Below, one piece after another: positions 1 to 14,450 of a DNA stretch of 14,499 nucleotides. The notes beneath the pieces were generated by a model. That model worked only from the letters and a program-made list of their open reading frames with translations. It searched no databases and was not told where the DNA came from. The position numbers and the translations under genes were made by a program. The DNA is from a virus (Duplodnaviria; Heunggongvirae; Uroviricota; Caudoviricetes), in IMG/VR virus record IMGVR_UViG_2617270990_000006. One strand, 5' to 3'. Within the stretch, counting starts at the first letter, position 1, and every line of letters begins with the position of its first letter.

Positions 1-343
1 ATATTTGCTAATCTACTCGCCGCATTTTTAATTGACGACATAATCCAGCCATCGCTGGATTTCCCCCCCAGAAGTGCCGGATCCGAAAAGAAGAACTAAC
101 TCGTTGTGGAGAATAACAAAAATGGTCATCTGGAGCTTACAGGTGGCCATTCGTGGGACAGTATCCCTGACAGCCTACAAAACGCAATTGAAGAACGCGA
201 GGCATCGTCTTAACGAGGCACCGAGGCGTCGCATTCTTCAGATGGTTCAACCCTTAAGTTAGCGCTTATGGGACCCGCCCCCGCACCAACAACCCTGTTA
301 TCGTGTCGTCTGCTCTTCCTGATAAGCTAATGGCGGTTTGTGA

Positions 344-419
344 TGGTGGCCCTTGCTGGATTTGAACCAGCGACCTGGCGATTATGAGTCGCTCGCTCTC
401 ACCACTGAGCTAAAGGGCC
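344..419 (-). tRNA. tRNA with anticodon CAU (Ile2/ileX-like, as in ileZ of lambdoid/Stx phages; Met not excluded)
   Basis: Reverse complement GGCCCTTTAGCTCAGTGGTGAGAGCGAGCGACTCATAATCGCCAGGTCGCTGGTTCAAATCCAGCAAGGGCCACCA folds as a 76-nt cloverleaf: 7-bp acceptor stem, GCTC/GAGC D-stem, loop CTCATAA, GCTGG/CCAGC T-stem with TTCAAAT loop, encoded CCA. Close to E. coli ileX as I recall it. Confidence 0.85.
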
Positions 420-468
420 GGAAGCAGAATAATAATGGTGCGTAATTAATTCTGCAATCTCATCCGTT

Positions 469-1518
469 TCAAACGATTAAATCCTGAACTTCCCTGACTG
501 TCTGCTCAAAACGTCCGGTCTCCAGTTCAACGCCAATCGCACGACGCCCCAGTGCCATCGCCGCTTTTACCGTTGAACCCGACCCCATGAAAAAATCTGC
601 AACCAGGTCACCCGGACGACTGCTTGCGCTGATTATCTGCTGCAGCATTTCTGCCGGTTTTTCGCACGGATGTTTCCCGGGATAGAACTGCACCGGTTTA
701 TGTGTCCACACATCCGTGTACGGCACCTGCGCCGTCACACCAAAATACCGCCGCAGATGCTTATATTCACTCTGCAGCTCCACATACTGCCGGTTCAGTG
801 ACGTATACGTATCCACCAGCTGGTGGTGGGGCTTTTCCAGTTCACCGCGCTGATGTTTCTCTTCTGCCACCCGGGCAAACAGCGACTGTAATTTCAGATA
901 ATCGCTTTCGTTCGGTAGCTGCCACTGACTGGCACTGAACCAGTGCGACACCATGTTTTTCTTTCCTGTGACATCTGCAATCTGTTTTGCCGTTATCCCC
1001 AGGGCCGCGCGCGCATCACGAAAGTAAGAAATCAGCGGGGCCATCACATGCTGTTTCAGTGCACTGCCCTTCGCCGCATACCCGGCATCTTTCGGACGAT
1101 ACGGCCCCTGATAATGTTCCGCGAACAGAATGCGCTCTGTGGCGGGGAAATACGCCCGCAGGCTTTCCTTGTTGCATCCGTTCCAGCGTCCGGACGGCTT
1201 CGCCCAGATAATATGGTTCAGCACACTGAAGCGTTCACGCATCATGATTTCGATATCAGATGCCAGGCGATGACCACAGAACAGGTAAAGACTTCCGGCA
1301 GGTTTCAGCACCCGCCAGAACTGCGCCAGACACTGGTCCAGCCACTTCAGGTAATCATCGTCGCCCTTCCACTGGTTATCCCAGCCTTCAGGCTTCACTT
1401 TAAAGTACGGCGGGTCCGTGACTATCAGGTCAACAGAATTTTCGGGTAACGACCGGATAAATTCCAGGCAGTCGGCGTTGATTAACTCACAACTGGATAT
1501 TTTTACAGTATTAAGCAT
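469..1518 (-). CDS. DNA amino-methyltransferase, beta-class (N6-adenine likely, N4-cytosine possible); apparently orphan
   Basis: 349 aa with ATG start. DPPY (motif IV) lies near the N-terminus and FFMGSGST (motif I, FxGxG) near the C-terminus, the beta-class order, with a ~100-aa insert between them. No nuclease partner nearby. Confidence 0.8.
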   Translation of the reverse strand: MLNTVKISSCELINADCLEFIRSLPENSVDLIVTDPPYFKVKPEGWDNQWKGDDDYLKWLDQCLAQFWRVLKPAGSLYLFCGHRLASDIEIMMRERFSVLNHIIWAKPSGRWNGCNKESLRAYFPATERILFAEHYQGPYRPKDAGYAAKGSALKQHVMAPLISYFRDARAALGITAKQIADVTGKKNMVSHWFSASQWQLPNESDYLKLQSLFARVAEEKHQRGELEKPHHQLVDTYTSLNRQYVELQSEYKHLRRYFGVTAQVPYTDVWTHKPVQFYPGKHPCEKPAEMLQQIISASSRPGDLVADFFMGSGSTVKAAMALGRRAIGVELETGRFEQTVREVQDLIV

Positions 1519-1653
1519 GGATCATTAAGCCTGTCTCTGATAGGCTCATTCTGCTTTTGCGCAAAGCAGTGGGCCTGAGGTTTGCTTGTGAACCCAACGC
1601 ATGAGCAGATGGCTGGTGGGTGCCCCTAACACCCACCAGCCGCCCATTTACCA

Positions 1654-1682
1654 CAAATAAAAAAGCCTTCACTGCGGAAGGC
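1654..1682 (-). terminator. Intrinsic terminator (minus strand) between small ORF and methyltransferase gene
   Basis: Hairpin GCCTTC-N6-GAAGGC (1665-1682) followed on the minus strand by TTTTTTATTTG. Confidence 0.5.
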
Positions 1683-1866
1683 GTCTGTAACAACCGAACT
1701 GATAGTCTGCCAGACCCGCCATAACCAGCTGGGTCAGTATTAACTGGCAGCGTTCGCGTGAAAGGTAAGTATTCTGCGCTATCTCCCCGACTGTCGCCGG
1801 TTCGGTAACGCTTAATTCATTAAACACCACTCTGGCGGTTTCTGTCATATCCTGCTGTTTTAGCAT
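1669..1866 (-). CDS. Small hypothetical protein (65 aa from ATG at 1866), possible HTH
   Basis: The ORF-track start at 1953 is GTG; the internal ATG at 1866 has an AAGGGA SD 8 nt upstream. Lies between two terminator-like hairpins; the stop is inside the hairpin stem. No family recognised. Confidence 0.3.
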   Translation of the reverse strand: MLKQQDMTETARVVFNELSVTEPATVGEIAQNTYLSRERCQLILTQLVMAGLADYQFGCYRRLPQ

Positions 1867-1985
1867 GTCTTTTTCCCTTTTCCGGTTAACGTGACACACC
1901 AATAACTCTTGTCGAAAAAGCCAGCAAGCTGAAAGACAGGTATTCACCGCCACCAGCGCGTTTACTGTACTGACGCGATTTCAGT

Positions 1986-2010
1986 CATAAAAAACCCGCC
2001 AGGCGGCGGG
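1986..2010 (-). terminator. Intrinsic terminator just downstream of Q (tR'-like)
   Basis: Hairpin CCCGCC-AGGC-GGCGGG (1995-2010) followed on the minus strand by TTTTTTAT. Confidence 0.5.
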
Positions 2011-2059
2011 GTGTAAAAAATCTTCTAACGTCAGGCATAAAACGCCCATCGTTAGGGCA

Positions 2060-2087
2060 AATTTACCACAGATTCGGGAAAAATCAA
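2060..2087 (-). promoter_or_regulatory. Candidate sigma70 late promoter (PR'-like) at the 3' end of Q
   Basis: On the minus strand: TTGATT (plus 2082-2087), 16-nt spacer, TAAATT (plus 2060-2065). About 50 nt upstream of the 1986-2010 terminator, resembling the lambda PR'-tR' unit on which Q acts. Confidence 0.35.
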
Positions 2088-2092
2088 CAACA

Positions 2093-2914
2093 CTATCGCG
2101 TTACCCTCTTTAACTGCCGCTCCGCCCATGCCTCTTCAATGTCAAACCGAACCACCAACGTATCGTAAAAGCGTTTCACTGATTTTTTCCACGTATCAAG
2201 CGTGATAGCACTCGTCACTTTGCATATGGCATTAAATGCCTCCGTTGATGGCAGCCTTTCACAGCCACGACCACCACAACGCTGGCAATCTCTGATAACA
2301 GGCATACCACGTTTTACCGACTCTTCACGATGAATGGCGACACCACGCCCACGGCAATCCTTACAGGCGGTGGAAACCTCACCCTTTCCGCCACACTCCG
2401 GACAGGCAACTTTTACCACCTCCCTGACTTTTTTCCATTCTTCCCAGTAAGACGGATACACGCCTTTTGTGCACTTTGCCCACACTGGTGGCTTACCATC
2501 CGGATACTGGATCTTGTTTGTAAAAACCTCGCTTTCAATAAATTTTTTTCCGTGACAGCAGGGGCACTGTTTTTTGCTCGCCGCGCTACGGGCATAATCT
2601 TCAAACGCATACGAAGCCATAATGCGCATCACTACCGGTTTTATTTCTGCCGGAAGTTTTCTCAACGCCGCCACACGATCGCACCGACTGAGTGCATAAT
2701 CTGCCAGTAATTCTGTTGCCCGCGCCCTGTCATTCATACTGATGCCCATTTTCCCCAGGAACGCAGAAAACCCCATCTCAGCCCGATTCTGTGTCATGCC
2801 CTGCGCGGCCATCACATCAGTGATACTCAGCGCATCTTTTGACGTTGAGGCCGATGCATCGGTCAGGCCAGGGGATTTTGGGGAGTAGTATTTCGGTAAA
2901 TCTTCCAGTTTCAT
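2093..2914 (-). CDS. Late-gene antitermination protein Q (Cys-rich zinc-finger type)
   Basis: 273 aa with several CxxC pairs (CPCC, CPEC, CKDC, CQRC). Sits directly after rusA with an ATGA stop/start overlap at 2911-2914 and directly before the candidate late promoter and terminator. Confidence 0.7.
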   Translation of the reverse strand: MKLEDLPKYYSPKSPGLTDASASTSKDALSITDVMAAQGMTQNRAEMGFSAFLGKMGISMNDRARATELLADYALSRCDRVAALRKLPAEIKPVVMRIMASYAFEDYARSAASKKQCPCCHGKKFIESEVFTNKIQYPDGKPPVWAKCTKGVYPSYWEEWKKVREVVKVACPECGGKGEVSTACKDCRGRGVAIHREESVKRGMPVIRDCQRCGGRGCERLPSTEAFNAICKVTSAITLDTWKKSVKRFYDTLVVRFDIEEAWAERQLKRVTR

Positions 2915-3285
2915 TTTTTGACCTGCTCTTCATGCATTATGGGGTAAATCTTCACCCCCATACGTCCACCAGATACTGGCTGACCACGAACGATATTGAT
3001 TTCATCAAACTGCTCATCGTCCATTAACACTCCCGCATGCGTCAGCGCATCCAGCGGTGCTTTCAGGATATTGTCCAGGTCGCGACGACGCTTATCCGGT
3101 GGCTCTGCAATCACCTTTATCGCCAGCCTTCCGGACAGGCTTAATTTCAGCCGCTGCTGGCGAACAATAAGCGCCACAGCCCGGCGATAACGCTTTCCCT
3201 CCTCCGAGATAAAATATGTGCTGCCACGGCGTCGCCAGTAAGTGTTCACCGTCGGCGGGTAAGGTAAAACCAAATCTATGAGCAT
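2911..3285 (-). CDS. rusA: RusA-family Holliday junction resolvase
   Basis: 124 aa. PDKRRRDLDNILKAPLDALTHAG matches the RusA catalytic region (E. coli RusA [23 protein letters not shown] as recalled). ATG with GAGGTG SD. Confidence 0.9.
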   Translation of the reverse strand: MLIDLVLPYPPTVNTYWRRRGSTYFISEEGKRYRRAVALIVRQQRLKLSLSGRLAIKVIAEPPDKRRRDLDNILKAPLDALTHAGVLMDDEQFDEINIVRGQPVSGGRMGVKIYPIMHEEQVKK

Positions 3286-4794: not shown

Positions 4795-5673
4795 TCAGAC
4801 TGCAAGATCCAAGGGAAGATCAGAAATATCCTTTAATCTTTTACCATTAACCATCACGGAAAGCATGTCAGCTGCATCGCTGAGCCCCAGTATTTCAACT
4901 GCTGATATAAGTTCATAAAGCGCAAAATGATACACGCAATCTATATCACCAGTACCAAGAGCAATAGACGCCAGACGACTTGGAGTAGGCTCAGCAGTAA
5001 CAACCATTACATGAGGGAGATTTCCCTTACGGTTGCGAATAAGATTTAATGCCTCAGAACGAGCATTCTGGGCCCGGTCGCTTCTTATTGTCCATTTGCA
5101 GGAAATACTTGCGTGTAATATTGGTTTCCCACCATTCGAACTCCTGAGAGCTGACATGCGGGTAACAGAATCATCCACCAGTAATTCAGGACTGTTGATA
5201 ACTTGATCACATTCAGGTTCTCTTTCAACAATAATATCTGGTGAAATCGTATAATCACTCCCCAGTGCAGCAGCTAGCTGAGGATTACTTTTTGCAGCAC
5301 TATCCAATGCTATAAGATGGGCATATTGTTCATATTTAGCTATCTCTAATCTGTTTCTACCAGAAACCTGATGTACATTCCATTTTCCAGGGCGTAAGTG
5401 GCTGAGTTTAAAAAAGGTTTTTTCTATAAACTCTGCGCAGATACTCTCAAACTGATTACCAGATGTTTGCCCTGCAACACGTTCACCAATCGTTTCAGCC
5501 TGCAAGAAGCGAGCAATTTCTCTTGCTATAGCTTTACTGTTTTTGTTACTGCTATCTGCGTTACTAACAACTCCGGCAGTATTAATTGTGAGCGTATTCA
5601 GTAACAATTGGGCATGAAACTCCTTTCTGGCTTCAGCAAAACCAACTATGCTGTCAACCAAATCTCCATTCAT
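4795..5673 (-). CDS. Type II restriction endonuclease, NgoMIV/Cfr10I/Bse634I-like (CCGG-core site predicted)
   Basis: Preferred start is the ATG at 5673 (AAGGAAA SD 9 nt upstream, 14 nt after the methyltransferase stop); the track ORF runs to 5808 with a TTG. Motifs SPDIIV ... SCK ... E with Asp-to-Lys 47 aa and Lys-to-Glu 14 aa, the spacing I recall for NgoMIV (Asp140/Lys187/Glu201). Confidence 0.7.
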   Translation of the reverse strand: MNGDLVDSIVGFAEARKEFHAQLLLNTLTINTAGVVSNADSSNKNSKAIAREIARFLQAETIGERVAGQTSGNQFESICAEFIEKTFFKLSHLRPGKWNVHQVSGRNRLEIAKYEQYAHLIALDSAAKSNPQLAAALGSDYTISPDIIVEREPECDQVINSPELLVDDSVTRMSALRSSNGGKPILHASISCKWTIRSDRAQNARSEALNLIRNRKGNLPHVMVVTAEPTPSRLASIALGTGDIDCVYHFALYELISAVEILGLSDAADMLSVMVNGKRLKDISDLPLDLAV

Positions 5674-5686
5674 TTCTGGATTTCCT

Positions 5687-6811
5687 TCAGGCTGCTTGAC
5701 TATTCTTACTGATGTTATTCTTATACCGTCCCTGCAAAACTCCATACACATATTGTGCGATTTTTGCCGCAAATAGCGGTGGAACAGCATTCCCGATCTG
5801 CTTTGCAATCTCAGTTTTTGAACCGGTAAAAATGAAATTATCAGGAAAAGACATTAATCTCGCTGCCTCACGATGAGTTATTGGCCGATCCTCTTCCGGA
5901 TGTAAATATCGCCCTTTCTCCGGTTTGAAAAACTCAGTACGAATCGTTACTGAAGGTCTGTCCCACCACAGACGTCCAAACAAATCGGTCCCTCCAGATT
6001 TCTTTTTTAGCCAGCACGCCGGGGTTATATCAGGTCTTTTTTTCTGTAAATCGAAACGGTTACCTCCTGGTGGAACCGCTTTATATCGCTCCAAAGAAAC
6101 AGGTGTGGGATTACGCCCAAAATGTAAGTTCAGCGGAGGAAGTTCATTACGAATATCAGTTCCAACAGGAGCAGGTAAGTCACCAATTGCATCACGCGTA
6201 CAGACCCATTCAGGCAAAGCGACATCCTTATCAGGGGAACGATGCGTTGGTGCTGGCGGGAACGCCGGAATACTATGCACATCGAAGAGTTCTCGTTTGA
6301 TACCGATTGCTATCGTTCGTTTTCTTGTCTGAGGTACTCCATAGTCAGCAGTATTCAACACCATTGGATTAAGCAGAATAAAGCCCATGGATTTCGCTCT
6401 AAACGTAATGTCCGCAAACTCATCGCTTATCAGCAATCCGGGGACATTTTCCATGACGAACATACAAGCCCTTGAACGCTCAATGACATCCATATAAGGC
6501 TCCCACAATGCTCTTCGGTGATCACCATAACGATTCTTATTTAATAAACTGAATCCCTGACACGGGGGGCCACCTATGACCACATCAGCCTCAGGAACAG
6601 TATTGCTGGATGCCCACTCCTCAATATTTGCCTGAACTCCATGCAAACCAAAATTGGCATTGTAGGTATTTATAGCTGCAGCATTATTATCAATAGCAAG
6701 GATACTTTCAAAGTAGTCAGACATCTCTCCATGAAGAAAACCATAAGATAATCCACCTGCCCCACAAAAGAGGTCTATCACTCTGAATTTATTTAATTCT
6801 TTCATCCGCAT
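5687..6811 (-). CDS. DNA (cytosine-5)-methyltransferase, cognate of the adjacent endonuclease
   Basis: 374 aa with C5-MTase motifs in order: FCGAGG (I), GGPPCQGFS (IV), ENV (VI), QTRKR (VIII), GNAVPP (X). Confidence 0.9.
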   Translation of the reverse strand: MRMKELNKFRVIDLFCGAGGLSYGFLHGEMSDYFESILAIDNNAAAINTYNANFGLHGVQANIEEWASSNTVPEADVVIGGPPCQGFSLLNKNRYGDHRRALWEPYMDVIERSRACMFVMENVPGLLISDEFADITFRAKSMGFILLNPMVLNTADYGVPQTRKRTIAIGIKRELFDVHSIPAFPPAPTHRSPDKDVALPEWVCTRDAIGDLPAPVGTDIRNELPPLNLHFGRNPTPVSLERYKAVPPGGNRFDLQKKRPDITPACWLKKKSGGTDLFGRLWWDRPSVTIRTEFFKPEKGRYLHPEEDRPITHREAARLMSFPDNFIFTGSKTEIAKQIGNAVPPLFAAKIAQYVYGVLQGRYKNNISKNSQAA

Positions 6812-6989
6812 CCATATGCCTCAGATTAATGTTGAGCGTCTTACAGGACGCGTAATGTTAACTGGGGCTTTCTCTATCTGCCTTTTGGTGTTCATGCCTG
6901 AGGCAGACAGCCTCAGGCACCCGCAGCAATTCTACTTAACTCACGTCACCTCGCCAATATGAAATCAATCAGAAAGGTGATCCATAAAA

Positions 6990-7676
6990 TCACTCCTTCT
7001 CTTCTTTTCCGTAGTGGAGTTGGCCAATTTTGATAAGAGGGCGTCCCTGAGATTTGCGGTGTAGATTGGTATCGCGCAGAGAATACACACAGCCACAATA
7101 TTCCTGCTGATAGAATTTTTCGCGCTTGCTGATTTCAATCATACGGGACGAGCCGCCCTGCTTGCGCCAGTTATAATCCCAGTACACCATACCCGGATAA
7201 TGCGCAACAGCTCGCCGCCCACACTCGTTAACCTGCTGCATATTTTTCCAGCGTGAAATGCCCAGTGAACTGCTGATCACACTGAAACCATTTTCAGCAG
7301 CGTACAACGCTGTCCGCTCAAAACGCATGTCAAAACACATGGTACAACGGATCCCCCTCTCAGGCTCCCATTCCATTCCTTTGGCACGTTCAAACCAGTT
7401 GTCGGTGTCGTAATCAGCATCGATAAACGGCACGCCGTGTTGTTCAGCAAAGCGAATATTTTCATCCTTACGAATTAAATACTCTTTCTGAGGATGAATG
7501 TTCGGGTTGTAGAAAAAGATGGTGTAGTCGATTCCCGAGGCCTGAAGCGCCTCCATCACTTCACCGGAACATGGAGCACAGCAAGAGTGCAGTAGTAGTT
7601 TGTTTGCCCCGTTTGGGAGTTCCAATTTAGGCCGTTTGAAATCAGCAATAGTCATAAATATTTTTATTGGGGTCAT
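6990..7676 (-). CDS. QueH-like protein (DUF208, epoxyqueuosine reductase family)
   Basis: 228 aa. N-terminal [13 protein letters not shown] and C-terminal YCGCVYS conserved Cys motifs as I recall for QueH/DUF208. AT-rich like the neighbouring R-M genes. No convincing SD at either candidate ATG (7676 or 7655). Confidence 0.7.
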
Positions 7677-7829
7677 GAAAATAGCACAGAGTGTAGCATC
7701 AGAGCAGGGCTATCGGGAATATATGTCTAAATCTGGTAATATCTGGTTTTGACGCAAAGCGGACAACCACGCTGGCTCTACCCTGCGCCATGAAAATGTC
7801 AATTCACATCTGAACTAATGCTCTTTAAT

Positions 7830-8225
7830 CTAGTAACGTCTAAAATACCTAACATTTCCTTGATAAAATGTCAGTACACGCTGCATAGCTTCGCTCTTCC
7901 GGCACTCGCGACAGATTATATTCAGGCGCCTGTCGTAGCGGCGTATTTCTCCGTCTGGTAACTTTCGAATCAGTGTCGGGTCAGCAGCCTTCTCCGGTGT
8001 CTTACGCCATACGCGATACGCCTGCTCTGATGGAAATACCCCGCAATCACAGAGCCAGACATCACCACTGGCCGCAAGCGCACCAGATAAACGACGAATA
8101 GCGGTCTTACTGACACCCGTTTTATCTGCCAGTTGTCGAAAAGTTTCTCGTCCGCTCAGGCGCACGAATTCCACAATGCGCGCCTTCACTTCTTCCCGCT
8201 CTTCTGGTGTAAATACTTTTGCCAT
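7830..8225 (-). CDS. Hypothetical protein with HTH-like segment and Cys pairs (131 aa from ATG at 8225)
   Basis: The track start at 8240 is TTG; the ATG at 8225 has GGAGG 5 nt upstream. LADKTGVSKTAIRRLSG is HTH-like; CDC ... CRECRK suggests a zinc ribbon. Confidence 0.5.
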   Translation of the reverse strand: MAKVFTPEEREEVKARIVEFVRLSGRETFRQLADKTGVSKTAIRRLSGALAASGDVWLCDCGVFPSEQAYRVWRKTPEKAADPTLIRKLPDGEIRRYDRRLNIICRECRKSEAMQRVLTFYQGNVRYFRRY

Positions 8226-8240
8226 AAGCGCCTCCGGCAA

Positions 8241-9011
8241 TCACTTTTCCGACACAATACGACCGGATGAATCGACAATCTGTCGAACAATATCCCGGTG
8301 CTTGTACAGCTCCCGCAGCGCGGCGCAGACTCGCTCCCACTTCTGAACCTGACCTTTTGCCCGGCGCAGCTCGCGGTTAGCCACATGCAGCGATGGTAAA
8401 ATCAGACCATCCGGATGTTTTCTGGTGAACGACGGCTGTGACTGCACTGTGACCGCCACACTTTCAGTTTTTATTTCTTCCTGTGTTTCCGCTTCCCGGA
8501 CAGGTAACGCAATACCTGCTGGCTGAGGAATGGCTTTACCATCCGTTTCCGCTACGGATGCAGCTTCCGGCTCTGCCGGTAAATCAGCGCCCGGTATGCA
8601 GTAACGAAATTTACCGTTCTGATTTACGCGTGCCAGGCGCCCCGTTGCTGTTACGACCGCCAACGTGGAAGCAACCTTGCGAATGCTAACACCGAACTTA
8701 TCCGCCAGTTCCTCACACGTTTTAGCCCCATCCTGACAGATAAACTCAATCATCATGTCCGCGGTAACTTTTTGTTCGACCTCCCCGGTCAGCATATCCT
8801 GTGCTTCAGATTTTACTGGCCGCTCTTCGGTTACCCGGGATTCACCTTCGCCAGCCAGAAACCAGGTGTGACCAGTTTTATCAACGACGCCATTTCTTTT
8901 GAGTTCCCACAGCTCGTTGACAGCCTCTTCACGACTGATTCCAAGGCGAGCTGCCACCACATGTGAAGAGGCTTTTTTCAGTGCTTTCAGTGCGTCAAAT
9001 ACGGTTTCCAT
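8241..9011 (-). CDS. Hypothetical protein with two winged-helix-like domains (256 aa from ATG at 9011)
   Basis: The track start at 9029 is TTG; the ATG at 9011 has GGAGG 8 nt upstream. Two HTH-like segments (AARLGISREEAVNELWELKRNG and EELADKFGVSIRKVASTL), an acidic linker and a basic C-terminus. Confidence 0.55.
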   Translation of the reverse strand: METVFDALKALKKASSHVVAARLGISREEAVNELWELKRNGVVDKTGHTWFLAGEGESRVTEERPVKSEAQDMLTGEVEQKVTADMMIEFICQDGAKTCEELADKFGVSIRKVASTLAVVTATGRLARVNQNGKFRYCIPGADLPAEPEAASVAETDGKAIPQPAGIALPVREAETQEEIKTESVAVTVQSQPSFTRKHPDGLILPSLHVANRELRRAKGQVQKWERVCAALRELYKHRDIVRQIVDSSGRIVSEK

Positions 9012-9044
9012 TAATATTTCCTCCGACAAAATCGTTTCTCAGAT

Positions 9045-9707
9045 TCAAATAAAACCAGCTGCCTTCCGGCGTTCGTATTCCTGTTTCAGCCGTTCAATTG
9101 GCGTTGGCCCTTGCGGGTGTTTCGCCCCTTCCAGTTGTCGTCGCACTGGCGGAACACTCATCCCGTTACCAACATGCTTTGCCCATTTCGTCAGTTGCCG
9201 TTCCGCAAGTCGTTTTAACTCACCCTGCGTCATCTGGCGCTCAATCCCTCTGGTACGCATTTCGAGGCAGATGTGGTACAGCACAGGCTGTGGCCACGGG
9301 TATTTATCACTCCCGTCGTATCGCCAGGATTCATTGCGCCAGCGCCGGTACTCTTCCATCACTGCATCCACCGTAAGACCAAATGGATTTGCCCCACTCT
9401 CCGAAATCAGTGCAACAAACTCAGCCAGGTCCGGGGGCCACGTTTCACCCGCCCGGCAGCGGTCCATGCACTGACGGCAGACCAGCCGGATTTGCTGTTC
9501 AGTCATCGCGCCAATCTGGGCAATCCAGAGCTTCGAAGGTGCGGCCCCGTTCTTCTGTGTCCAGCGGTTCGAATACACCTCCCCCATAAGCTCCCACAGC
9601 TTCCAGGCCGTTTCCGTTGCTGATAAATCCGTTGTCACGTTCCCACTGTTCGCGTGCTGCCCGGATTTCCTGAACTGCCCGTGATGCCGTGCCACCTGAT
9701 GCTGCAT
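9045..9707 (-). CDS. Replication protein P-like (helicase loader)
   Basis: 220 aa. ATG at 9707 with AAGGGGG SD 6 nt upstream. WPPDLAEFVALI, YPWPQPVLYHICL and MTQGELKRLAERQL resemble lambda P (PSPGQFVAWC, YPWKSNAHYWL, LTDAELRRKAADEL as recalled). Overlaps the O-like ORF by 209 nt out of frame. Confidence 0.6.
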   Translation of the reverse strand: MQHQVARHHGQFRKSGQHANSGNVTTDLSATETAWKLWELMGEVYSNRWTQKNGAAPSKLWIAQIGAMTEQQIRLVCRQCMDRCRAGETWPPDLAEFVALISESGANPFGLTVDAVMEEYRRWRNESWRYDGSDKYPWPQPVLYHICLEMRTRGIERQMTQGELKRLAERQLTKWAKHVGNGMSVPPVRRQLEGAKHPQGPTPIERLKQEYERRKAAGFI

Positions 9708-10515
9708 GGCTTACCCCCTTGCTGACTGGTTTTACCTGTGCCCTGACGTGCTGCACGTGGCGGGCAAATTTCTGCTCCCACTGAACCTGCGTGAAAACCT
9801 TCCCCTCCGCCATCCAGTAATCCCGGAATGCGGCAAGCTCTGCAGGTGTAAATTCCGGCTCAGGCAGAGCCATACCCCACACTGCTGCCCGTTGTCGAAA
9901 ATCCGACGACAGCTGCCAGACAGTAGTCATCGAAAATTTCCCGATCGGTTCGCTCAGGCCGTCCAGGTATTCAGGTTCGGCTGTCTGCAACGGCGCACCA
10001 TGCGACTCACCGGTTGGAGCACTCTCGCGCATGCGCGCGTTATGTGTGGGGTTTAATTCTGTATCTGTATCTTTATCTGTCGTGACTTGTCGTGACATGT
10101 GCGTGACATTTCGTGACGCGCCGTGACAATCGCCATTTTGTTCCCGCTTTCTTTCCCTCTCACGCTGCGCCCTCTTGCGCTCTGCCGGAGATTTTGCGGT
10201 TTGCGAAATATTGCCGTTGTCCTCTTTAAGCACCTGGCGTTTTTCCCATCCAGTGATTAAATCACCATCAAGTACCCGCCCCTGCATCGTCTGCAAAATT
10301 GAATCAATTACCTCTTCTGTCACGTCGAGCGCACTTGCCAAATCTTCTGTCGTGACATCAATGTGACCTCGCGTGACATTTCGTGACGCGCTCACCAGGA
10401 GGTGGATATACACTGCCATCACTGTTGCAATTGGCTGCCCTGACACCCTGGCAATTGTTCGCCACTTAGGGTCATTTGGCATGTCATGCCATAATCTGAG
10501 CCAGGCGTTAGCCAT
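9499..10515 (-). CDS. Replication initiator (O-like) with origin iterons inside the coding sequence
   Basis: 338 aa from the ATG at 10515 (AAGAGGTG SD); the track start at 10521 is GTG. Two clusters of phased CGTGAC repeats fall inside the gene and encode a repeated ASRNVT peptide. Sits between the cII-position gene and the P-like gene. Confidence 0.65.
   Translation of the reverse strand: MANAWLRLWHDMPNDPKWRTIARVSGQPIATVMAVYIHLLVSASRNVTRGHIDVTTEDLASALDVTEEVIDSILQTMQGRVLDGDLITGWEKRQVLKEDNGNISQTAKSPAERKRAQRERERKREQNGDCHGASRNVTHMSRQVTTDKDTDTELNPTHNARMRESAPTGESHGAPLQTAEPEYLDGLSEPIGKFSMTTVWQLSSDFRQRAAVWGMALPEPEFTPAELAAFRDYWMAEGKVFTQVQWEQKFARHVQHVRAQVKPVSKGVSHAASGGTASRAVQEIRAAREQWERDNGFISNGNGLEAVGAYGGGVFEPLDTEERGRTFEALDCPDWRDD
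10081..10127. repeat. Iteron cluster A: five CGTGAC repeats phased 10-11 bp (candidate ori)
   Basis: CGTGAC at 10081, 10091, 10102, 10112 and 10122. Preceded by an AT-rich stretch (10050-10080) and the palindrome CGCGCATGCGCG (10026-10037). Confidence 0.6.
10351..10391. repeat. Iteron cluster B: four (C/T)GTGAC repeats phased 10-11 bp
   Basis: Repeats at 10351, 10362 (TGTGAC), 10372 and 10382. The 21-mer GCGTGACATTTCGTGACGCGC at 10371-10391 is an exact copy of 10101-10121. Confidence 0.55.
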
Positions 10516-10586
10516 ACTCACCTCTTCTGATACCGAATCTTTTTACTCACGAGTTGCCGGAAGCGATTCGATATGGCTATTGTCAG

Positions 10587-11012
10587 TCAATGTACTGCCA
10601 CAGCATTTCCTGCCGGGCCACCACGGTTCATCTGATTGAAACCGGCGATTGCCACTGCGACAAAATCATCAGCGTCTCTCACCAGTCGCTCCCGCGTCTC
10701 CACCAGCTCCCGAAAATAAGCTGAACTGTGGCTGCGCATTCTGGCCACCAGCAAAGGTGGCATTGCCTTTTCGATCGCTGGTAACAACGCCTGAATTTTT
10801 TCAACTGCATCAGGGGTGTCTTTCTCTACCCAGCGGAAAATTTTCTGGGTATTACGGGCCAGGGCTTCCGGATGGCTGTCGTCGTACAGTTCCGGGAACG
10901 TCATCCCCAGTTCGAAATAAGTCCGGGCTATTTCAGCTGCTGGAACTTTCTCACCGTCTGGATACGCCCAGGCATTCATTGCCATGCGGATGTGTTCATG
11001 CTTGATTTTCAT
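10587..11012 (-). CDS. ydaT: cII-position regulator, YdaT-like
   Basis: 141 aa (E. coli YdaT is ~140 aa). ATG with GGGGGTGA SD; overlaps the cro-like gene by 17 nt. Assigned by position and length, not by remembered sequence. Confidence 0.5.
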   Translation of the reverse strand: MKIKHEHIRMAMNAWAYPDGEKVPAAEIARTYFELGMTFPELYDDSHPEALARNTQKIFRWVEKDTPDAVEKIQALLPAIEKAMPPLLVARMRSHSSAYFRELVETRERLVRDADDFVAVAIAGFNQMNRGGPAGNAVAVH

Positions 11013-11271
11013 GAATCACCCCCGCCTCTGGTTGTGTGTTAGCCTGATACTCGACAGGTAAGCCGTCGGTTGGGTTGGGATAAGTACTGCCATCAATCTC
11101 GTGCGGAGTTACTATCCAGCCTGTTGCTTCGCACCAGCGTAAAATTTTTTTCCCCGTAAGTTTCGCCCGTCCGGTAATGACATGGCTTACCATCCCTTGG
11201 GTTACCCCAACAATTTCAGCAAAATGCTTCTGAGTTATACCGGAATGATGCAAATATTCTCCAAGATTCAT
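10996..11271 (-). CDS. ydaS: Cro-like HTH regulator (YdaS-like)
   Basis: 91 aa. ATG with GAGGTG SD. HTH segment GITQKHFAEIVGVTQGMVSHVITGR. Divergent from the repressor gene across the operator region. Confidence 0.6.
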   Translation of the reverse strand: MNLGEYLHHSGITQKHFAEIVGVTQGMVSHVITGRAKLTGKKILRWCEATGWIVTPHEIDGSTYPNPTDGLPVEYQANTQPEAGVIHENQA

Positions 11272-13236: not shown

Positions 13237-14127
13237 TCAGGCTGCCAGATCATCGTTTCCGATGGAAGCATAATAAGCTTTTTCTGCTTCTGCCGGAGGA
13301 GTATGGCCCAGCCTTCCCAGCAATCGTCGATTGTTATACCAGTCCACCCACGTTAGTGTGGCCAGTTCCACTTCTGCACGGTTTTTCCAGCTCTTACGGT
13401 GTATTACCTCCGCTTTGTAAAGACCATTGATGCTCTCAGCCATCGCGTTGTCATACGAGTCGCCTGTACTCCCTGTTGATGCCAGTAATCCGGCTTCTTT
13501 TAGTCGCTCCGTATAGGCCAGTGACACATACTGAGAGCCTTTATCGCTGTGATGGATGGTGCCAGACGGACGACGGGCCCACAACGCCTGCTCCAGCGCA
13601 TCCAGCACGAATGTCGTTTCCATAGACGATGAGACCCGCCACCCCACGATGTATCCGGCAAACACATCAATGATAAACGCCACATAGACGAAGCCCTGCC
13701 ATGTGCTGACGTAAGTAAAATCAGCCACCCACAGCTGGTCAGGTCGTTCTGCCACGAACTGACGGTTTACGCGGTCGCCTGCGGCAACGGCTTTCCGGCT
13801 GATGGTCGTACGGACCTTTTTACCCCGGAGAACACCGGCAAGTCCCATAACCGCCATGAGACGTGCCACTGTACATCTGGCCACCCTGATTCCTTCCCGT
13901 AACAACTGACGCCAGACTTTACGCACACCGTACACCTGATGATTTTCATCGTATACGCGCTGTATCTCTCTCTTCAGCCAGTCGTCGTGCTGCGCACGGG
14001 CACTGCGTTTATCCGGATGATGTCGCTGTTGCTGACAATGGTAATACGTTGACGGGGCAATATGCAGTTCGCTGCATACCGGTCCGACCCCGTACTGCTC
14101 ACGCAGCTTATCCAGCAGTGGCATCAT
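13237..14127 (-). CDS. IS3-family transposase OrfB (integrase core, DDE)
   Basis: 296 aa matching IS629 OrfB as recalled ([16 protein letters not shown] ...). DDE residues in [17 protein letters not shown] and [15 protein letters not shown] overlap with orfA. Confidence 0.9.
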
Positions 14128-14450
14128 TTTTTCCAGAGGCGGTCGAACTCCGCCTTCGCAAAATAAGCGGAAGCCTGGCGAAGGATATCGTTACTGCGGC
14201 GCAGTTCACGATTTTCACGTTCCAGCTCTTTCAGACGCTGACGTTCAGCGCTGGTGAGCCCACCATCACCGCCCCCGGTATCCCGCTCATGCTGGCGAAC
14301 CCAGACACGCAGAGTCTCCGGCGTACAGCCAATCTTTGGGGCAATGGAACAAATTGCCGCCCACTGTGAGTCATATTCATCCTGACTTTCCAGAACCATA
14401 CGAATCGCCCGCTGACGGACTTCGGGGGAAAAACGAGTATTTTTAGTCAT
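14124..14450 (-). CDS. IS3-family transposase OrfA (HTH/leucine-zipper part)
   Basis: 108 aa, [51 protein letters not shown] ..., matching IS629/IS1203 OrfA as recalled. A-rich run GGAAAAAATGA at the orfA/orfB junction suits -1 frameshifting. Confidence 0.9.

Follow-up and report, generated by a model that had tools for sequence, protein, structure and literature searches.

The methylase gene of the window (the whole stretch of phage DNA analysed here, 14,499 nt) raises the question of what a DNA methylase with no nuclease partner does in the late region of a lambdoid prophage, which sites it modifies and when it is made. A sequence-only reading of the locus had described an orphan β-class amino-methyltransferase of the late operon with an inserted region of about 100 amino acids, had proposed an anti-restriction or epigenetic role for it, and had expected a discrete m6A or m4C motif to appear on its expression. 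The comparative analysis presented here suggests that the gene is very probably an orthologue of M.EcoGII and M.EcoGI, which would methylate adenine in any sequence context, be expressed late in dependence on Q, and act in anti-restriction. The features of the locus are collected in Table 1.

Table 1. Features discussed in the text, with positions in the window
Feature	Position	Strand	Details	Source
IS421 end	1-294		truncates the tRNA-Arg that normally comes after tRNA-Ile	
tRNA, CAT anticodon	344..419	-	50 nt downstream of methylase stop; tRNA-Met by ARAGORN	ARAGORN
β-class N6-adenine DNA methyltransferase CDS, M.EcoGI/M.EcoGII family by sequence	469..1518	-	349 aa, ATG start	ORF list
Motif I, AdoMet-binding FFMGSGST (FxGxG)	571..594	-	aa 309-316	translation
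Target-recognition domain (TRD), helical bundle with predicted HTH at about aa 177-194	808..1041	-	aa 160-237	M.EcoGII limits from PMC11551740
Motif IV, catalytic DPPY	1405..1416	-	aa 35-38	translation
Conserved structured 5' leader, about 137 nt	1519..1655	-	P0 enclosing hairpins P1 and P2, then hairpin P3, then conserved UGAGCCUAUCA stretch	
Intrinsic-terminator-like hairpin	1665..1682	-	GCCTTC..GAAGGC, then TTTTTTAT	terminator scan, sequence
65-aa ORF, weak winged-helix character	1669..1866	-	phrog_331 at 1.4e-37, no assigned function	
tR'-like intrinsic terminator	1995..2010	-	CCCGCC GCCT GGCGGG, then TTTTTTAT	terminator scan, sequence
Lambda-like late promoter pR', predicted	2048..2087	-	TTGATT, N16, TGG-TAAATT; AACGAT promoter-proximal pause element; right after Q stop	
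Antitermination protein Q	2093..2914	-	273 aa; PF03589 Antiterm 2e-49; phrog_127	PGAP 'antitermination protein' in E. coli 042
NgoMIV-family REase	4795-5673		paired with C5 methylase	Pfam, PADLOC
C5 methylase of NgoMIV-family pair	5687-6811			Pfam, PADLOC
IS3-family element	13237-14450		beside immunity region, at the other end of the window	identified by eye

Class and relatives of the methylase

The protein is a β-class N6/N4 methyltransferase, as had been proposed. The Pfam family PF01555 (N6_N4_Mtase) matches residues 29-340 with 152.9 bits (E 1.7e-44), far above its cut-off (gathering threshold) of 26.7 bits, and the order of the motifs, with catalytic motif IV ahead of motif I, is that of the β class; the PADLOC profile MTase_II (PDLC03265) matches with E 3.5e-167. 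Alignment revealed no alteration of the catalytic residues, both motifs being invariant across 25 homologues of 75-95% identity (in motif I, residues F309, F310, G312, S313, G314, S315 and T316). With an AF2 model of the full-length protein, of moderate confidence (pLDDT 61.7), the top Foldseek matches were CcrM, M.BceJIV, M.MboIIA and M.RsrI (E 5e-9 to 1e-6), and these enzymes, PvuII and HpyAVI were all matched with probability 1.00. No solved structure of M.EcoGII was found in the PDB by sequence and Foldseek searches.

The exact protein is deposited at NCBI as WP_032237784.1, and its cluster at 90% identity has 5932 members. The best-studied enzyme to which it can be compared, M.EcoGII, is encoded by a prophage of E. 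coli O104:H4 C227-11 (GenBank EGT69837.1; Murray et al. 2018, PMC5778455). The two proteins agree in length (349 aa), in motif order, in the layout of the TRD and linker and in the lambdoid prophage as host element, and a full-length alignment with M.EcoGII as given in the SUPREM supplement has 331 identities in 350 positions (~95%). The printed text looks machine-read, and since several mismatches look like reading errors (HH for HI, RRR for RR, a garbled THKPVQ), the true identity may be nearer ~96%. About 14 substitutions seem real; most lie within the TRD and linker (aa 148-278), two of them in the predicted HTH, where V183 and S191 replace the A and P of printed M.EcoGII. None of three hand-repaired versions of M.EcoGII had an exact database entry, so the identity figure rests on the printed text together with the link through phage 1720a-02, whose methylase was named 'very similar' to M.EcoGII by Murray et al. 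(PMC5778455) and whose gene is 95.6% identical in DNA to that of the window. The O104:H4 copy was not located among 1981 matching records.

The divergence of the window protein from M.EcoGII is similar in size to that between M.EcoGII and M.EcoGI, a member of the same family encoded by another prophage of that O104:H4 strain (333 of 349 residues identical, i.e. 16 differences; PMC5778455). The residues published as the dimer interface of M.EcoGII (97-110 and 116-140; PMC11551740) are the same in the window protein except at position 103, where the mismatch (HH vs HI) looks like a text-reading error, and this stretch is also conserved over the 25 homologues; by homology, the window protein would likewise form a homodimer.

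By sequence, then, the methylase is an orthologue of the M.EcoGI/M.EcoGII family, an enzyme already known and not new. Finding it is in itself ordinary: roughly one in three complete E. coli genomes has a gene of M.EcoGII type (1979 of 5426, with up to six copies per genome), and the type enzyme is sold as a reagent. A methylase of 99.2% identity is encoded in E. coli 042 within the same order of genes bearing the same PGAP names. The methylases of phage 1720a-02, of many Stx2a, Stx2c and Stx2d phages and of phiP27 show 84-96% DNA identity to the window gene, and relatives of 63-81% identity were found across Enterobacterales.

Prophage context

On its minus strand, the window runs across the boundary between the early and late regions of a lambdoid E. 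coli prophage. It carries, in this order, an immunity region with cI-like and Cro/YdaS-YdaT genes, replication genes, DUF1627 and DUF977, QueH, a C5 methylase with an NgoMIV-family endonuclease, DUF968, RusA, Q, the 65-aa ORF, the methylase and a tRNA. No cognate endonuclease adjoins the methylase, its neighbours being the 65-aa ORF upstream and the tRNA downstream. The sole nuclease nearby belongs to the C5 restriction-modification pair, which is complete (4795-6811), separate, and 3.3 kb from the methylase gene. Both the orphan status of the gene and the presence of two different methylation activities in the prophage, as claimed by the sequence-only reading, are borne out by this arrangement. 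The counterpart of the tRNA in E. coli 042 is annotated by PGAP as tRNA-Ile.

The methylase genes of Stx phages are placed likewise, with Q on one side, the stx/lysis region on the other and the same small ORF 5' of the gene. These phages have other Q types and carry stx downstream, whereas in the window the downstream region is cut by IS421, which interrupts the tRNA cluster some 150 nt beyond the end of the methylase gene.

The state of the prophage suggests a reading in which the gene of the source strain is a functionless passenger, intact by chance or by recent descent and never productively expressed. The IS421 end truncates tRNA-Arg, a genome with the same IS421 junction has lost the lysis, terminase and head genes beyond the IS, and an IS3-family element, recognized by eye, lies beside the immunity region. 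With these two elements at the two ends of the window, the prophage may be defective, and the methylase may never act on progeny of its own phage. Nevertheless, we consider decay to this point unlikely. Q, pR', the 65-aa ORF, the leader and the methylase ORF itself have all remained intact, and nearly the same sequences occur in complete prophages, such as the one on contig JNMX01000063, an intact relative with the identical protein in which the same gene order continues into holin, lysozyme, Rz, terminase and capsid genes. Moreover, expression could still be turned on by the Q of a second lambdoid prophage of this type. In any case, this reading bears on the present use of one copy and not on the identity of the gene.

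Candidate late promoter and terminators

A candidate late promoter was identified by alignment with the Q-S intergenic region of lambda, to which the window is identical in GGTAAATTTG and in AACGATGGG, the pause element. A generic sigma-70 scan of positions 1-3000 flagged no promoter, and by our count the candidate pR' matches 8 of 12 sigma-70 positions. Two potential intrinsic terminators separate it from the methylase. The first, a strong one resembling tR', lies ~45-50 nt downstream of the predicted pR' start. The second overlaps the stop codon of the 65-aa ORF directly upstream of the leader, and at its place other genera have analogous T-run hairpins of different sequence.

This layout resembles the lambda pR'-qut-tR' unit and the StxS-generating pR' unit of Stx phages (PMC7547250), with the -10 region and the AACGATGGG pause element kept and a terminator shortly after Q. 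It differs from them in the first sizeable gene past tR', which is stx or a holin gene in Stx phages and lambda but the module of the small ORF and methylase in the window, and in the second terminator placed between the small ORF and the methylase.

The pR' of Stx phages is a constitutive promoter whose transcripts are terminated in lysogens, and Q gives read-through (PMC7547250). By analogy, the pR' transcripts of a lysogen would stop at the terminators and leave the methylase silent, and Q-driven read-through late in the lytic cycle would transcribe it. Since the gene lies downstream of Q and behind pR' and two terminators, late, Q-dependent expression seems well supported by its placement, which agrees with the earlier assignment of the gene to the late operon.

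The same placement would explain a property reported for M.EcoGI and M.EcoGII, which are silent in the native lysogen and cause slow growth or harm when expressed constitutively (PMC5778455). The candidate pR', tR' and second terminator offer a concrete and testable reason for this silence, which PMC5778455 left as a presumption. Because of the silence in lysogens and the harm of constitutive expression, an epigenetic role in the lysogen, one of the two functions suggested for the gene, is unlikely. The other, anti-restriction, coincides with the proposal of the M.EcoGII authors (PMC5778455). In the reading favoured here, replicating and packaged phage DNA would become heavily adenine-methylated late in infection and would probably be protected from many restriction enzymes with A in their sites.

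Inserted region and target recognition

The insert of about 100 amino acids is confirmed by comparison with solved enzymes. The conserved blocks are separated by 167 residues in the window methylase vs 74 in M.BceJIV (8urk), and the corresponding gap of M.RsrI has 41 residues vs 140 in the window methylase, a surplus of ~93-99 residues between the core halves. CcrM, M.BceJIV, M.RsrI and M.MboIIA, all with solved structures, have the same catalytic core (phmmer E 1e-25 to 5e-15), but they are only 17-21% identical to the window methylase, are sequence-specific, and lack ~95-100 TRD/linker residues.

The published model of the M.EcoGII subunit (PMC11551740) consists of a Rossmann core (1-134 and 260-349), a four-helix-bundle TRD (160-237) with an HTH, and a long charged linker; the SUPREM authors modelled the enzyme as a homodimer and suggested that its positively charged surface stands in for base-specific contacts (PMC11551740). 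Our AF2 models agree in outline with this model, at lower confidence. The AlphaFold model of aa 145-262 (pLDDT 78) has helices at 146-173, 177-184, 189-193, 204-224 and 231-258, the charged linker helices after the TRD extend to about aa 259, and the TRD and linker are colinear with those of M.EcoGII, without insertion or deletion.

The HTH signal of the window protein itself is weak: Pfam HTH_3 matches aa 167-195 with E 0.07, below its cut-off, and a model of the TRD alone gave no significant Foldseek match against the PDB (best E 0.36). The local matches of highest probability, none of them significant, are XRE-type HTH domains, among them CapH-N (probability 0.95, rmsd 1.9 Å over 54 columns), C.BclI (probability 0.85) and C.Esp1396I. 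The insert probably represents the usual TRD plus linker found in the M.EcoGII family and no added regulatory domain; of the two roles proposed for the HTH-like segment, target recognition is favoured over regulation.

By homology, the window methylase would act as a homodimer, in which the Rossmann core (aa 1-134 and 260-349, with DPPY and FxGxG) would flip out and methylate adenine, while the HTH domain and charged linker (about aa 145-259) would grip nucleic acid by non-specific, largely electrostatic contacts.

Sequence specificity

M.EcoGII methylates A in any context in dsDNA, ssDNA, RNA:DNA hybrids and RNA (PMC5778455). DNA and RNA were methylated by each of the six ancestors reconstructed for the clade; two of them, Anc291 and SUPREM (Anc284), were examined for motifs by nanopore, and neither had a discernible one on RNA (PMC11551740). 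Judging from the activity of these ancestors and the absence of a motif, non-specificity looks like a trait of the clade and not of one allele. Homologues of ~93% similarity were labelled 'nonspecific' in a methylome study of STEC, via REBASE similarity searches (PMC6602927). We therefore infer non-specific adenine methylation by the window allele.

A site-specific orphan enzyme, reading a motif of its own through the HTH-like domain, would also fit a few observations. M.PflMI (CCANNNNNTGG), the closest relative whose site specificity is proven, is predicted to fold similarly, TRD included (PMC11551740), the differences from M.EcoGII cluster in the TRD and linker, and the NCBI name of the protein is 'site-specific DNA-methyltransferase', although this label is generic. 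Against it, the window protein is ~95% identical to a proven non-specific enzyme and retains the long charged interdomain linker, which M.PflMI lacks in the description given in PMC11551740; the ancestors, far more distant than this allele, all methylate DNA and RNA and lack a motif on RNA in both cases examined, and homologues at the 93% level are already assigned as nonspecific. These observations make a site-specific enzyme highly improbable.

Non-specific methylation carries a practical consequence. From an enzyme of this kind no discrete methylation motif should appear, and bulk m6A without a motif is to be expected, so that the earlier expectation of a new m6A or m4C motif fails; for this family, massive m6A in the absence of a motif would be the positive result. 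Accordingly, bulk m6A and not a motif is what methylome tests of M.EcoGII-type genes should seek, and the annotation 'site-specific DNA-methyltransferase' misleads where methylation of all adenines is to be expected.

That the natural substrate is RNA or ssDNA (transcripts of phage or host, or the phage tRNAs encoded next to the gene) in place of duplex phage DNA is the least credible reading, even though M.EcoGII in vitro methylates ssDNA nearly as well as dsDNA and also acts on RNA and on both strands of RNA:DNA hybrids (PMC5778455), and phage tRNA genes regularly lie downstream of the methylase gene: DNA is by far the better substrate, with ~90% of A methylated vs ~30% in RNA (PMC11551740), no RNA target in vivo is known, and tRNAs are general to this late-region slot of lambdoid phages and no specific partner of the methylase, the same tRNA directly following Q in strain 3502, with no methylase between them.

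Conserved leader upstream of the methylase gene

The interval between the 65-aa ORF and the methylase gene attracts attention by its conservation. In 88 close loci this 150-nt spacer is mostly 95-100% identical and more conserved than the coding sequence, and it aligns across genera with visible compensatory changes. For the covariation analysis, a protein search of viral contigs was of no use, as it returned only relatives of at least 94% identity; the necessary diversity was provided by a genome collection with one genome per species.

The proposed structure (Table 1) leaves 94.7% of cells paired vs 27-45% with slid partners, and 13 of its pairs have compensatory (double) changes vs 4-8 in the slid controls; none of 500 shuffles reached the observed values. 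After realignment with a covariance model the figures are 96% and 14 pairs, the alignment then being fitted to the structure and leaning towards it. At one pair of P1 there are many changes from U-A to U-G, which fits an RNA of the sense strand. The leader of the window has a minimum free energy of -60.6 kcal/mol (z -3.67) and is matched by the covariance model at 1516-1655 of the minus strand with 126 bits.

Besides the window, 52 of 80 species-level loci gave exactly one strong match to the model, without exception on the sense strand and just before the methylase start; as all but one of these 52 loci supplied sequences for the model, this result shows the absence of extra copies and is not an independent detection. 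No leader was detected by the model at the Xenorhabdus and Photorhabdus homologues, where this region is shorter and different. A 24-nt pattern from the leader matched at least 120 viral contigs, and among the matches listed a methylase start lies 30-120 nt downstream in each of the 115 that could be evaluated.

Rfam gave no sense-strand match to the leader at E <= 0.1 for the window or at E <= 1 for eight diverse loci, and no description of such an element was found in the literature, including the excerpts of the M.EcoGII papers. The leader is immediately preceded by a terminator, and no obvious Shine-Dalgarno sequence was seen by eye before the start codon at its 3' end; from this position a post-transcriptional gate on a toxic enzyme is the most economical guess. 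We regard it as possible, though tentatively, that the leader, with or without a protein partner, is an undescribed cis-regulatory RNA that imposes a second restraint on a host-toxic methylase. It could act by translational gating, as a processing site, through autoregulation by an RNA-binding methylase, or by sensing SAM or SAH.

Several other candidates in this region were rejected. A match to Rfam P26 at 1578-1642 of the plus strand (E 0.033) was taken as chance, being below the gathering threshold and on the wrong strand. The conserved TGTGGTAAAT immediately 5' of the leader was considered as a further promoter and discarded, as the -11A/-7T pattern is lost in other genera. Neither a fourth helix, AUCAG/CUGAU, masking the region before the AUG, nor the long-range pairing of the 5' GUGG with the CCAU at the start codon in the minimum-energy fold showed compensatory changes by eye. 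A GATC occurs at 1520-1523, just 5' of the methylase start codon.

Small ORF associated with the leader

The leader and the small ORF together are the only element of this locus that might be new, and they may represent an undescribed control module of the methylase family across Enterobacterales. If true regulators, they would show how phages keep a host-toxic, genome-wide methylase off until the last minutes of infection. The 65-aa ORF, whose counterpart in E. coli 042 is annotated as a hypothetical protein, gave weak matches to TrmB, MarR_2 and HTH_24 (E 0.003-0.09), all below cut-off.

Its association with the methylase is more distinct. The ORF, spacer and methylase keep a fixed spacing in 86 of the 88 close loci, whatever the type of Q upstream, and the ORF was present in all 107 viral contigs with enough upstream sequence among the matches listed. 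At the species level, a small ORF lies just upstream of the methylase in 53 of 78 loci having upstream sequence, with a range from Escherichia to Xenorhabdus and Photorhabdus and amino acid identities of 39-87%.

Leader RNA and small ORF upstream of the methylase gene

The M.EcoGII-type adenine methyltransferase gene is preceded by a structured leader in which covariation supports an outer helix P0 that encloses P1 and P2 and is followed by P3; the stretch UGAGCCUAUCA is conserved within it. Copies of this leader were detected in many enterobacterial genera, always one per locus and directly 5' of an M.EcoGII-type gene, and no Rfam family matches the leader, either in the window or in eight diverse loci. 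In L167, a Rahnella prophage, the methylase leader is preceded, at a distance of a few hundred bases, by a near-threshold match to the STnc100 sRNA family (positions 2986-3195; 43.9 bits, gathering score 47). At the junction of leader and gene, a GATC (Dam) site is located 2 nt 5' of the methylase start codon and is kept in most genera, and in the window copy the start codon is overlapped by a four-codon out-of-frame upstream ORF, ATGATCCATGCTTAA. No Shine-Dalgarno sequence was obvious on inspection of the methylase start.

A 65-aa ORF is found directly 5' of the methylase in 86 of the 88 close loci, in 53 of the 78 species-level loci with upstream sequence (one genome per species), and, among the matches listed, in all viral contigs (107/107). 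Its position remains constant despite the different types of Q gene located upstream. The encoded protein weakly matches the winged-helix families TrmB and MarR_2, and may regulate the methylase or act as its partner.

Further upstream, a terminator lies approximately 50 nt 3' of a lambda-like late promoter pR' with its pause element. As judged from the sequence, this unit would give rise to a short constitutive transcript, analogous to the 6S RNA of lambda and to StxS of the Stx phages.

Features of the window discussed in this section
Feature	Position	Strand	Basis or remark
End of IS421 (IS4 family)	about 1-294		cuts tRNA-Arg
tRNA, CAT anticodon	344-419	-	ARAGORN: Met; PGAP on E. coli 042 counterpart: tRNA-Ile
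Methylase leader, ~137 nt	1519-1655	-	covariation-supported helices
GATC (Dam site) and out-of-frame uORF near methylase start	1520-1532	-	sequence
65-aa ORF, phrog_331	1669-1866	-	weak winged-helix matches
Lambda-like pR', pause element, terminator	1990-2087	-	sequence
NgoMIV-family endonuclease (Type II R-M pair)	4795-5673	-	292-aa form, as in other annotations
C5 cytosine methylase (Type II R-M pair)	5687-6811	-	complete pair with endonuclease
QueH, epoxyqueuosine reductase (tRNA modification)	6990-7676	-	PF02677, E 1e-65
Two adjacent small ORFs, 63 and 96 aa	11897-12378	+	judged by eye
Two overlapping ORFs, 108 and 296 aa	13237-14450	-	identified by eye

Restriction-modification and defence genes

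The Type II restriction-modification pair is complete, with the C5 cytosine methylase gene preceding that of the endonuclease. Its G+C content (0.42-0.47 across 4795-6811) compares with approximately 0.5-0.56 in the flanks, and the pair looks like a cassette inserted in the nin region. In the related phage L006 (region 6100-11050), whose methylase protein is identical to that of the window and whose Q protein belongs to a different family (PF06530), the interval between Q and the small-ORF/methylase module encodes a C5 methylase, along with a HEPN protein and a Type IV restriction protein of the GmrSD type. Because of this gene content, genes for modification and defence seem to have a hot spot in the post-Q slot.

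Insertion sequences, tRNA genes and minor ORFs

The IS421 end interrupts tRNA-Arg, normally the next gene after tRNA-Ile. The same junction is shared by strain 3502, where the lysis and head genes past the IS are absent. The two overlapping ORFs adjoining the immunity region look like orfA and orfB of a putative IS3-family element, and the presence of both elements suggests that the prophage is decaying.

Since its E. coli 042 counterpart is named tRNA-Ile by PGAP, the CAT-anticodon tRNA is probably a lysidine-dependent Ile tRNA. The prophage carries tRNA genes along with QueH, an identical copy of which is widespread (a cluster of 2308 members). Finally, the two small ORFs adjoining the repressor gene look like a putative pair of an antitoxin and a RelE/ParE-type toxin.
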